64,000 bases of DNA, from assembly GCA_965222115.1 (NCBI GenBank), contig CBDCTJ010000007.1, positions 288,001 to 352,000 on the forward strand. The letters are read 5' to 3'. Shown here piece by piece: positions 17,377 through 20,323 of the stretch (positions are counted from its first letter, which is position 1; each line of letters opens with the position of its first letter). Both the position numbers and the translations under genes were made by a program. This DNA comes from Planctomycetota bacterium. Its GTDB lineage: Bacteria > Planctomycetota > PLA2 > JAEUHO01. The notes below the pieces were generated by a model. The model was not told the origin of the DNA and did not search any database. It saw nothing but the letters and a program-made list of their open reading frames with translations.

Positions 17377-17427
17377 CCCGCCACAAAGGCCCGCGCAATC
17401 ACGGCATGTTCATTGTAATTTACAATT

Positions 17428-17868
17428 ATGAGCACGCCGCTCCACACGCTTGAAGTTCGCTTGGCCCAGGGCCTTCGCCTGGATGCCACAGAAGCGGAGC
17501 TGCCAGAATCGGCCGCAAGGCTACTGCTTGCGATTGATCCCACGCGTGATCTCTCGATGTCTCAACTCGCCCATCGAATCGGACGCGACACCAGCACGGT
17601 AACGCGATTCACCGATCGTGCCATCAAGCTGGATCTCGTGGAACGCCAACCCGGCGCCATCGACGCGCGCAAACGCATCCTTCGGCTTACCGAGTTCGGT
17701 CTCACCAAACGCAACGCCCTTCACCAAGCCGCCGCTACACGCCTGGAACATCTCGTCCACGAAGTCCGCACACAGACCGGCCTCGGAGAGAACAACGTCA
17801 ACTGGTTCCTTCAAGCCCTCACCAACTCCCTCTCCGCACCAAAGAAACCTGGCATTTCTGGCGCATAG
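17428..17868 (+). CDS. MarR family transcriptional regulator
   Basis: SMSQLAHRIGRDTSTVTR winged HTH and DARKRILRLT motif. Confidence 0.88.
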   Translation: MSTPLHTLEVRLAQGLRLDATEAELPESAARLLLAIDPTRDLSMSQLAHRIGRDTSTVTRFTDRAIKLDLVERQPGAIDARKRILRLTEFGLTKRNALHQAAATRLEHLVHEVRTQTGLGENNVNWFLQALTNSLSAPKKPGISGA

Positions 17869-17980
17869 CCACAGACGCGCCACAGATACCTGGTATTTCT
17901 GGCGCATCCGTTGGCCCCGATCAGCCCCTGACGCCCATTCGCTCCGTCATGCGCCACAGATACCTGGTATTTTTGGCGCA
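17835..17980. repeat. Left REP-like module: three 31-bp imperfect palindromes (17835-17865, 17876-17906, 17950-17980)
   Basis: Approximate consensus YGCGCCACAGATACC-W-GGTATTTYTGGCGCA; spacers 10 and 43 nt. Confidence 0.93.
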
Positions 17981-17986
17981 CACGCG

Positions 17987-18952
17987 CTACCGATTCCATG
18001 AGATCCGTATGGCAGTACGAGCGGCTTCTGCAGCAATATGCGCGTAGACAATGTCGCTCAGGATGCGCGACTTGTGCTCCCGCACACGCCGCGATGCCGT
18101 AGATCGATGGCAATTGACAATCTGACCGATCACTCGCGAAGTCGCACATGCGATTGTCGCCAAGAGCCCGGCGATCAGTATCGGACGCACCTCTTCATCC
18201 AGAAAATCACTGGTTGCCGCGAGAACCGCTTGCGTGGAGGCAACTGGCGTCCAAGGCGAAACACCGCGAGCGGCCCGTACTTTTCGACGCATCCATAGCA
18301 TGAGGAATTCGGGCGGAGCTGAATAGAGCTTGTCAAGATTGTCTTCGAGCACCTGCGGATACTTCAGTTGCTTTTCCACGAGACCAAATGCCTCGTCTGA
18401 AATGTTGTCTCCAAACGCCTCGACATAGCCTCTCCCCATGGGAATGTGATCCCAGGAGCCGGGAGGGCCGATTGCATCGCTTTGTGATTTCTTAAGCCAC
18501 GGCGGCAGTTTCGAGGCTGCGTAGTGTCGCGCTGTGCCGTGTGGGTATAGGACGGGATTTGTACAGAGGCCTGCCTTAACTGGATTGAAATCCACATACT
18601 TCATGCAATTCTTCCAGTATCGAAACGAATCGATTGGCTTCGCGAAGTACCTGTATTCCCAGCCTGGCCCCTTCCTTCCCAGCTTGCGGTTGACTCGGCG
18701 CGTATAGGCATTGAGGATCCGCATGAGCGGAACATGGAGTCTTCCATCCGGCGCATAGCCGATCATATGGTAGTGCGTGCTGAGCGTTGTGCAGGTGTGG
18801 ATACCGAACTCTCCGCGCCGTATTGAGCAGGCGACCAACATCGTGAAGAATCGATGATCCCACTTGTCGGCAAAGAGCACCTCACCGTGTGCTCCGCGGC
18901 CCGTGATGTGATGTAGCTGACCAGGACGGTCACTTCGAAAACGATGATTCAT
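17987..18952 (-). mobile_element. HUH/Y1 tyrosine transposase (RAYT/IS200-like) with C-terminal HTH-like extension
   Basis: HHITGRG, HUH motif STHYH, N..LGRKG..WEYRY, catalytic Tyr in KYVDFNPVKAGL; C-terminal TSRVIGQIVNCHRSTASRR HTH-like segment; flanked by palindromes. Confidence 0.88.
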
Positions 18953-19002
18953 GTGAAGCCTCTAGACTTCACTTCGAATAACGACGCGTTAGGTCACACC
19001 TA

Positions 19003-19148
19003 TGCGCCAAGAAAACCTGGTATTTTGGGCGCACAGAACGAAACGCGCCGCAGAAACCAGGTATTTTTGGCGCATGGGAGAGGCGGGGTGGGTTGCAGAC
19101 GCCGACTAGGTGCGGCATGCGCCACAGATACCAGGTATTTTTGGCGCG
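19003..19148. repeat. Right REP-like module: three 31-bp imperfect palindromes (19003-19033, 19044-19074, 19118-19148)
   Basis: Same consensus and orientation as the left module; spacers again 10 and 43 nt. Confidence 0.93.
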
Positions 19149-19156
19149 CTCAGAGA

Positions 19157-20323
19157 TTAGGCGAAGGCGGAGATGCCGGTGAGTTCGCGGCCGATGATGA
19201 GGGTGTGGATGTCGTGGGTGCCCTCATAGGTTTTGACGCTTTCGAGATTGCACATGTGACGCATGGTTTGGTACTCGTCGGCGACGCCGTTGGCGCCTAG
19301 CATGTCGCGGCCGATGCGCGCAATTTCGAGGGCGTGATGACAGGCGTTGCGCTTGGCGAGACTCACTTGCTGCGGCGTGACTTTGCCGGCGTCCTTTAGG
19401 CGACCGAGTTGTAGGTTGAGCAGTTGCGCCTTGGTGATCTCGTTCACCATTTCGACGAGTTTGGCTTGATAGAGCTGGAAGGACGTGAGCGGTTTACCGA
19501 ACTGTTCACGCGCGCCGCCGTAGTTGAGCACTTCGTCATAGACCGCCATGGCGGCCCCCACCACGCCCCACGCAATGCCGTAGCGTGCCTGATTGAGACA
19601 ACGTAGCGGCCCGGCGAGTCCCTTGGCACCCGGTAGCAGCGCTTCCGGCCCAAGCTTTACGTCCTGCATGATGAGCTCGCTGGTGACCGAAGCGCGCAAG
19701 CTGTGTTTGCCACGTTGTTCGGGCGCGGAGAAGCCCTCGCGATCGGTGGGCACAATGAATCCGCGGATCTCACCGTCGAGTTTGGCCCACACAATCGCAA
19801 CGTCGGCCATCGAACCATTCGTGATCCACATCTTGGCGCCACTGAGGACGTAACCGTCGCCATCTTTGACAGCTTTGGTTTCCATGCCACCGGGATCACT
19901 GCCGTGGTCGGGTTCCGTAAGTCCAAAACAACCTACAATCGTGCCCGCGTGCATACCGGGCAAGTACTTGGCCTTTTGTTCATCCGTGCCGTAACGCCAG
20001 ATGGGAAACATGACCAGCGCACCCTGCACACTTACGAAACTGCGCAATCCCGAATCCCCGCGTTCAAGTTCCTGCATCACAAGGCCATAGGCGACGCTGC
20101 TCAGACCCGGAAAATCGGGGTAGTCGAGGTTGCCACCGAGCGTGCCCAGTTCGGCGATCTCAGGAATGACTTCCTTGGGAAAGTAGCCATCGCGATAGGC
20201 CTTCTCCACCAAAGGCAGATACCGATCCGATACCCACTCACGCACAGCATCACGTACCATGCGTTCTTCTTCGCTAAGCAGCGAGTCAAGATTCATGAAG
20301 TCGGGGGATTGGAATCGCGCCAT
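19157..20323 (-). CDS. gcdH: Glutaryl-CoA dehydrogenase-like acyl-CoA dehydrogenase
   Basis: ELERGDSGLRS, GCFGLTEPDHGSDP, GAKMWITN, CLNQARYGIAWG, REQFGKPL, MCNLESVKTYEGTHDIH. Confidence 0.88.
   Translation of the reverse strand: MARFQSPDFMNLDSLLSEEERMVRDAVREWVSDRYLPLVEKAYRDGYFPKEVIPEIAELGTLGGNLDYPDFPGLSSVAYGLVMQELERGDSGLRSFVSVQGALVMFPIWRYGTDEQKAKYLPGMHAGTIVGCFGLTEPDHGSDPGGMETKAVKDGDGYVLSGAKMWITNGSMADVAIVWAKLDGEIRGFIVPTDREGFSAPEQRGKHSLRASVTSELIMQDVKLGPEALLPGAKGLAGPLRCLNQARYGIAWGVVGAAMAVYDEVLNYGGAREQFGKPLTSFQLYQAKLVEMVNEITKAQLLNLQLGRLKDAGKVTPQQVSLAKRNACHHALEIARIGRDMLGANGVADEYQTMRHMCNLESVKTYEGTHDIHTLIIGRELTGISAFA

Follow-up and report, generated by a model that had tools for sequence, protein, structure and literature searches.

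A 64-kb stretch of a Planctomycetota genome (64,000 nt of contig CBDCTJ010000007.1, hereafter the window) carries a transposase gene between two short arrays of palindromes, at positions 17835 to 19148. This locus is very likely a repetitive extragenic palindromic (REP) repeat/REP-associated tyrosine transposase (RAYT) system of the REPtron/TIRtron type, in which a single-copy HUH/Y1 gene is bracketed by its own genome-dispersed palindromic repeat. The evidence supports the palindromes as the cognate REP-type repeats of the transposase. According to its structure model, the 321-aa protein is a RAYT-like HUH/Y1 nuclease fused to a helix-turn-helix (HTH) domain that resembles domain IV of DnaA. 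From the analogy with related enzymes we infer its catalysis and mobility and the binding target of the HTH domain. The repeat sequence and the protein are new; the architecture is already known. Literature searches for RAYTs in Planctomycet* and for TnpAREP with DnaA found only works on REP/RAYT systems, TIRtrons and TnpA_Y1 to be relevant, and the comparisons made here refer to the text of these works.

A repeat search recovered six 31-nt imperfect palindromes, three on each side of the gene, at the same positions as an initial annotation of the sequence (Table 1). Their start-to-start distances are 41, 74, 1053, 41 and 74 nt. The two modules (17835-17980 and 19003-19148) each measure 31+10+31+43+31 = 146 nt, and the identities between left and right linkers that had been counted by hand, 4/10 for the short and 22/43 for the long linker, were equal when recomputed. 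The six palindromes are 74-94% identical to one another (mean 83%), and each forms 9-13 Watson-Crick pairs out of 15 with one or two additional G-T pairs. The repeat, centered on ..TACC-W-GGTA.., is nearly its own reverse complement, the asymmetry being confined to two or three positions. By these positions all six copies do lie in one orientation, as had been stated, but the call depends on two or three positions of a near-symmetric palindrome. The lack of the GTAG foot in the repeats, also pointed out then, is confirmed. When the region 17400-19400 was searched against Rfam, the sole matches were two to eukaryotic families, both at chance level (E 0.26 and 0.79) and well under the gathering scores.

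Table 1. Features of the transposase locus, in window coordinates
Feature	Position	Strand	Remarks
REP copy 1	17835..17865	+	Degenerate, 9/15 Watson-Crick pairs; within the last 11 codons of a MarR-family open reading frame (17428-17868)
Short linker, 10 nt	17866..17875	.	
REP copy 2	17876..17906	+	
Long linker, 43 nt	17907..17949	.	Contains the box GACGCCCATTCGCTCC (17930-17945), common to long linkers elsewhere in the genome
REP copy 3	17950..17980	+	Ends 6 nt short of the minus-strand transposase stop codon
RAYT-like protein gene, 321 aa	17987..18952	-	HUH motif H60-Y-H62; catalytic-type Tyr in Y119-V-D-F-N-P
HTH domain like DnaA domain IV, residues 238-319	17996..18241	-	3pvp_A, Z 10.6; 1j1v_A, Z 9.9
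HUH/Y1 nuclease domain of TnpA_REP type, residues 1-197	18362..18952	-	4er8_A, VIA Z 17.2; Foldseek; profile against PDB
REP copy 4	19003..19033	+	50 nt upstream of the transposase start codon
Short linker, 10 nt	19034..19043	.	
REP copy 5	19044..19074	+	Predicted to fold with copy 4 into one long hairpin as single-stranded DNA
Long linker, 43 nt	19075..19117	.	22/43 identical to the left long linker
REP copy 6	19118..19148	+	Ends 8 nt from the stop codon of the minus-strand acyl-CoA dehydrogenase gene (19157-20323)

The transposase gene is the sole long open reading frame (ORF) between the modules. The final 11 codons of the MarR-family ORF, together with its stop codon, are found inside copy 1, the most decayed of the six palindromes. 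Insertion of the repeat may have replaced the original end of that ORF.

The repeat is dispersed throughout the genome. In the window itself, a scan with a degenerate 29-mer allowing three mismatches finds the six sites only, and none in 100 dinucleotide-preserving shuffles. The original remark that no other copy was seen in the window is therefore true for the 64 kb, but it is misleading as a description of the repeat. In the 4.55-Mb assembly (7 contigs) the degenerate pattern has 71 matches on each strand with up to three mismatches (none with a reversed-pattern control), and an exhaustive mismatch count, allowing up to 5 of the 24 specified positions, gives 79 sites in 36 clusters on three contigs. 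This genome-wide dispersal bears out the view of the flanking palindromes as REP-type repeats. The clusters comprise 9 singlets, 14 doublets, 10 triplets and 3 quadruplets; larger clusters outnumber singlets by 27 to 9, no array exceeds four repeats, and 34 of the 36 clusters are away from the transposase gene. By a crude, over-inclusive ORF mask, the 8.6% of the genome that is free of ORFs of 150 aa or more contains 35 of the 79 sites, an enrichment of about five-fold. About 14 sites belong to a perfectly symmetric subfamily, GCGCCACAAAAGCCWGGCTTTTGTGGCGC, in which GCC replaces the central TACC (e.g., 542045 on contig C3 and 2635856 on contig C7). This subfamily coexists with the asymmetric main type, often as its neighbor at 41-42 nt.

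The distances between neighboring repeats, tabulated for all 43 within-cluster gaps as the initial annotation had proposed, form two peaks. Seventeen gaps measure 41-45 nt (seven of them exactly 41) and thirteen measure 71-74 nt (ten exactly 74); the remaining values are 38, 39, 47, 56, 57, 65, 82, 84, 85 and 96 nt. Given a uniform spread over 270 values, ten gaps at 74 nt would have a probability of ~1e-15 and seven at 41 nt ~3e-10. Short and long gaps tend to alternate within an array (41,74; 45,73,45; 74,42; 71,45; 41,85). By the asymmetric positions most neighbors are in direct orientation; these calls are weak, and many sites score '0'.

Several comparisons assign the protein. NCBIfam gave a single family match, REP_Tyr_transpos (NF047646, REP-associated tyrosine transposase; 52.5 bits, E 4.7e-14). 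Relatives among 1.84 billion representative proteins number 8803 with E up to 0.001 and 113 with E up to 1e-30; the best 150 are mostly 310-370 aa long and align over their full length. The nearest homologue (P0002, 271 aa) is 59% identical. In a family alignment of 45 relatives, H60, H62, Y119 and N123 are invariant, and Y119-V-D-F-N123-P fits the signature Y-x3-N-P given in the text of Quentin et al. (2018, PMC6006769) for class 2, the TnpA_REP-like enzymes, IS200 transposases having Y-x3-Q. Pfam Y1_Tnp is matched by 40 of the 45 aligned relatives (E up to 0.1), and the HTH tail matches the Pfam families HTH_23 in 12 and Sigma70_r4_2 in 14. When the profile of this alignment was compared with the PDB, the E. 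coli TnpA_REP structure 4er8 was the top solved relative (E 1.3e-07), and the C-terminus gave weak matches to DnaA domain IV (E 0.24-0.7). An AlphaFold2 model built from the alignment (mean pLDDT 90.5, pTM 0.88) has two domains with solved counterparts: i) residues 1-197 superpose on 4er8 (Foldseek E 3.7e-07; root-mean-square deviation 2.4 Å, 156/165 residues); and ii) residues 238-319 superpose on DnaA domain IV (1.5 Å over 82 residues of 3pvp). The core fold is also shared with the TnpA proteins of IS608 and ISDra2. Thus, the fold and the invariant residues uphold the first identification of the gene product as a RAYT-like HUH/Y1 enzyme.

The association of this type of enzyme with a repeat of its own extends to its relatives. 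Homologues (E up to 1e-5, most of them full-length) occur in 32 of 41 related genomes, own genome included, with up to 9 matches per genome, and a metagenome scan with a 5-sequence alignment added 13 loci with identities of at most 45%. A search of genome contigs for related loci with the single protein returned no relative. Among 19 homologous loci from relatives and metagenomes, 18 have the gene between copies of an inverted repeat 12-43 nt long; in the one exception the downstream flank is missing. The bracketing repeats are genome-specific and often dispersed. Three relatives were scanned (G016, G020 and G001) and hold 55, 33 and 4 copies, respectively, and many of those in G016 form inverted pairs 70-73 nt apart. 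A scan of 28 other genomes of this taxonomic family did not find the 31-nt repeat, and its exact pattern has no match in JGI metagenome contigs. In 11 of the 18 bracketing repeats GTAC stands beside a short hairpin-forming tract. A remote possibility is that the foot-less palindrome arose by head-to-head joining of such GTAC-footed ends, in which case it would be the multiplied fossil of an end-to-end junction.

The transposase gene is present once in its genome; the closest other match shares 30% identity and is accompanied by different repeats. This second full-length RAYT-like paralogue (341 aa, contig C7 ~1066290-1067500), of the same architecture by eye, is bracketed in inverted orientation by a 22-nt repeat of the CACAATTAGTRCCGGGAGYGAA type, which has 21 genomic copies (control 0), often in tandem at a strict 32-nt period. 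For TnpA_REP genes, one enzyme with one repeat family has been described (text of PMC6006769). At another place, contig C1 ~601500-603600, the similarity of two ORFs (162 and 170 aa) to the transposase is confined to its N-terminal 93-98 residues (39% identity). Both ORFs are within a direct duplication of ~1.5 kb (blocks of 296 and 252 nt, 96-97% identical) with 31-nt perfect inverted repeats nearby, and are possibly a decayed or a different Y1 element.

The long linkers between the repeats are related to one another. Ten linkers of the 74-nt class, which are 45 nt long when counted between the 29-nt cores, have a mean identity of 0.436, compared to 0.295 +/- 0.009 in random genomic 45-mers. 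Trimmed by 3 nt at each end they retain 0.422, against 0.333 +/- 0.009 in their own shuffles, none of 500 of which reaches the observed value. The excess persists when the window's two linkers and one near-duplicate are left out (0.389 vs 0.331 +/- 0.013; largest shuffle 0.376). The left long linker of the window has a gap-free identity of 76% with a linker on contig C1. A MAFFT alignment of all 20 linkers from gaps of 65-96 nt revealed a common box, ~GCCG.AGAGGCCCATT, in fixed register to the following repeat. As judged from these alignments, the 74-nt unit is a composite repeat in which decay is faster in the linker than in the palindromes. A conserved box of the form ~AGAGGCCCATTCG is seen in fixed register in many long linkers (e.g., 17930-17945). 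The GGAGGC/GAGCC-like core of this box is reminiscent of the GTAC-GGAG(G/C)C ends found beside homologous genes in relatives; the box may serve as a binding site for a protein or may be left over from an older type of repeat. At 298840-301330 of contig C1 two near-identical doublets with 74-nt spacing bracket a single ORF of 744 aa, the N-terminus of which is like that of an extracytoplasmic function sigma factor. Of the ten linkers, those of these doublets have the highest identity to each other (up to 82%), and the gene is apparently framed by copies of one composite unit.

Neighboring repeats are also predicted to fold together as single-stranded DNA. Copies 4 and 5 would pair into one hairpin (-40.4 kcal/mol, z -5.5) closed by a loop of 12 nt, copies 2 and 3 would pair across the long linker (z -2.9), and the minus strand of the left module would form a long hairpin (z -3.4).

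A mechanism can be proposed along these lines. By analogy with E. coli TnpA_REP and IS608 TnpA, a single palindrome or two neighbors would fold into a hairpin when the DNA is single-stranded. The N-terminal HUH domain would bind the hairpin, cut beside it through Tyr119 and rejoin the DNA, and the C-terminal DnaA-domain-IV-like HTH would probably add sequence-specific DNA binding. Over time, cutting and rejoining could copy repeats or repeat doublets to new intergenic sites. The 41-nt and 74-nt spacings would result from the copying of composite units (repeat, linker, repeat), and alternating short and long linkers would yield arrays like the bacterial interspersed mosaic elements (BIMEs). The linkers are proposed to drift in sequence and mostly keep their length because the enzyme would read the repeats and not the linkers.

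The system can be placed among those already described. With the E. coli REPtron it shares the HUH/Y1 fold and the Y-x3-N-P motif of TnpA_REP, a gene in one copy with its own palindromic repeat on both sides, and the dispersal of that repeat between genes in regularly spaced arrays, BIMEs being described as 'regularly spaced REPs' in the abstract of PMC2817692. It differs in that i) the GT[AG]G foot is absent; ii) the 31-nt palindrome is almost symmetric, so that an alternating orientation is not visible; iii) the protein is twice as long, with the DnaA-IV-like domain; and iv) the copy number is lower. The REPINs of Pseudomonas fluorescens SBW25, as presented in the text of Bertels and Rainey (2011, PMC3116915), are doublets at 71 and 110 bp with a spacer that is less conserved than the repeats. 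The present repeats likewise form doublets at preferred distances, here 41-45 and 71-74 nt, with linkers less conserved than the repeats; a doublet is predicted to form one long hairpin, and larger clusters predominate over singlets. The SBW25 repeats, however, are inverted copies of an asymmetric sequence, whereas each repeat here is itself palindromic and two spacing classes alternate within the arrays. No excision reads were seen here in contigs of one sample at depth 2-5.

The system also resembles the TIRtrons and subclass 2.1 of TnpA_Y1. Di Nocera et al. (2013, PMC3733652) describe some repeat families of the TIRtrons (TIRYT) as self-complementary and of moderate abundance, occurring as dimers or clusters at short distances. 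The tail of subclass 2.1 proteins resembles Bac_DnaA_C or HTH_23, and no REP-like sequences adjoin their genes as far as the text of the survey goes (PMC6006769). The present system is like both in having a long RAYT-like protein with a C-terminal HTH tail of the Bac_DnaA_C or HTH_23 type and flanking repeats without a GTAG foot (PMC3733652, PMC6006769, in their text). Unlike the TIRtrons, the repeat lacks the GGGGWSAS motif reported there for most TIRs (PMC3733652). Unlike subclass 2.1 as characterized in that survey, this gene and its relatives do have adjoining repeats, three copies of the cognate repeat being present on each side in this case, and its motifs are THYH and YVDFNP in place of the tabulated NHVH or NH[YF]H and YIELNP or Y[IV]HLNP. 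Compared by the tabulated motifs, THYH, WE and YVDFNP exactly match no row of Table 1 of Quentin et al. (PMC6006769). A placement in subclass 2.1 is accordingly a tentative one. The proposal of an undescribed RAYT/REP subtype holds weakly, to the extent that the repeat sequence is new and the protein is a further member of the family, and no further.

A number of observations weigh against a REP/RAYT assignment. The 52.5 bits to REP_Tyr_transpos are under the family cut-off of 80, and Pfam Y1_Tnp (PF01797), the profile by which the initial annotation had proposed to identify the enzyme, is not matched by the 321-aa protein at E up to 1, although most of the aligned relatives do match it. The unpaired GT[AG]G or CGTC at the end of the stem-loop, by which canonical REPs are recognized in the text of PMC3733652, is absent, and the flank consensus of the repeat is only R at -2 and T/C at -1. 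The copies that flank the gene are not inverted, judged by the few asymmetric positions. The total of 79 copies is below the '>100' that is usual for REPs in the abstract of PMC2817692. Under the crude mask, 44 of the 79 sites fall inside some ORF of at least 150 aa, and these may not be extragenic. The interiors of the short linkers (6 nt; identity 0.405 vs 0.367 +/- 0.036 in shuffles) are too short for power; since they are no more alike than shuffles, common descent of the 41-nt doublets is not demonstrated. Finally, the sequencing contigs, from four runs of one sample at depth 2-5, give no evidence of excision. The joints seen in them are cross-matches to other clusters of the same genome and are uninformative on excision or spacer variation.

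The regularity of the spacing invites another explanation. The initial annotation suggested that spacing rather than spacer sequence is under selection, and an enzyme with two DNA-binding domains, or an oligomer, might indeed need repeats 41 or 74 nt apart for a defined nucleoprotein complex in which the linker sequence is free. The recurrence of exact lengths across the genome accords with such a requirement, as do the low average identity of the long linkers (~42%), the lack of detectable similarity in the short-linker interiors, the second, duplex-type DNA-binding domain of the protein, and the strict 32-nt period of the paralogue's repeat. The selective part of the suggestion, in contrast, is not needed, the copying of composite units being sufficient. 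The long linkers are related by descent, with a common box in fixed register, so their length can simply be inherited. Other gaps are common (56, 57, 65, 82, 84, 85 and 96 nt), nine clusters are single repeats, and the modal length is kept in just 10 of the 20 aligned long linkers, roughly what drift with occasional insertions and deletions would leave (a rough estimate with an assumed indel/substitution ratio). BIME- or REPIN-style copying of composite units produces fixed spacing with less conserved linkers, and the copying of doublets accounts for the same pattern in REPINs (PMC3116915; abstract of PMC2817692). Selection on spacing is thus considered unlikely. A more elaborate form of it, in which the enzyme reads the repeats doubly, the HUH domain on the single-stranded hairpin and the DnaA-IV-like domain on the duplex, with the 41/74-nt geometry as a selected docking lattice, is likewise unlikely. 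The repeat arms contain TGTGG/CCACA, the core of the DnaA box, with agreement at just 4-5 of 9 positions, for which chance is a possible explanation.

A reading of the palindromes as mainly host elements partly overlaps the REP/RAYT reading. The palindromes would be duplex operators for the HTH domain, terminators or mRNA stabilizers, and the protein a domesticated DNA-binding factor. A palindrome with 14-bp arms has the classic form of a dimeric HTH site, the C-terminal domain is of the DnaA-IV type, and three copies occupy the gene's own upstream region (19003-19148). Many clusters also abut stop codons: a stop triplet is found within 7 nt at 22 of 72 outer cluster flanks, compared to 0 of 86 inner flanks. 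Scanning for promoter and terminator consensus sequences, however, returned no sites and no T-run terminator. The invariance of the HUH histidines and of the tyrosine throughout the family speaks for retained catalysis, and the repeat sequences differ wholly between related genomes, a pattern of co-evolving mobile repeats and not of conserved operators. A purely host role is accordingly given little weight.

Alternatively, the locus might be mobile as a whole, either as an autonomous IS200/IS605-type insertion sequence or as a mobile TIRtron, in which the gene moves with the flanking arrays as its ends. The HUH/Y1 core fold is held in common with IS608 and ISDra2 TnpA, action on single-stranded hairpins is presumably shared as well, relatives hold several matches per genome, and the repeats bracket the gene on both sides. 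IS200/IS605 elements, however, are multi-copy and have one subterminal hairpin at each end, whereas the present gene occurs once, with triple arrays at both ends, its next match is a distant one with different repeats, and nearly all repeat clusters are away from it. Their transposases have Y-x3-Q and no HTH tail, often with tnpB alongside; here the motif is Y-x3-N-P (distinction as in the text of PMC6006769) and no tnpB-like ORF adjoins the gene. Movement of the whole locus as one element is therefore regarded as highly improbable.

The look of conserved repeats with dissimilar spacers of fixed length, seen at one locus only, had also suggested a repeat-spacer system with diversifying spacers, but a CRISPR-like memory with spacers taken from invaders has next to no likelihood and is rejected, since the arrays are short (up to four repeats) and dispersed at 36 places over the genome, the linkers have two alternating lengths and are related to one another with a common box, neither module matches any of 50,697 phage records nor the whole stretch any of 72,556 plasmid records, and no cas-like gene adjoins, the neighbors being genes for a MarR-family regulator and an acyl-CoA dehydrogenase.

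One contig of the assembly, C6 (48,116 nt), stands apart in composition, with 39.7% G+C compared to 55-59% in the remaining six; the difference may mark it as a foreign element or as a contaminant from binning.

In the REP/RAYT reading preferred here, the fixed spacing is the known BIME/REPIN pattern and the system is in that respect an ordinary one. The locus contributes a clean REP/RAYT pair with clear boundaries from a lineage that has been little studied. The neighboring acyl-CoA dehydrogenase is most similar to those of three MAGs labeled Planctomycetota (65-67% identity), a weak indication that this is the lineage. The two-domain form, an HUH nuclease with a DnaA-domain-IV-like tail, is widespread in related genomes and goes with genome-specific dispersed repeats, in contrast to the survey of Quentin et al. 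(2018, PMC6006769), the text of which reports no REPs beside the HTH-tailed subclass 2.1. Furthermore, two unrelated repeat families, each with its own paralogue, are present in one genome, which makes this organism a natural test bed for the specificity of enzyme and repeat.

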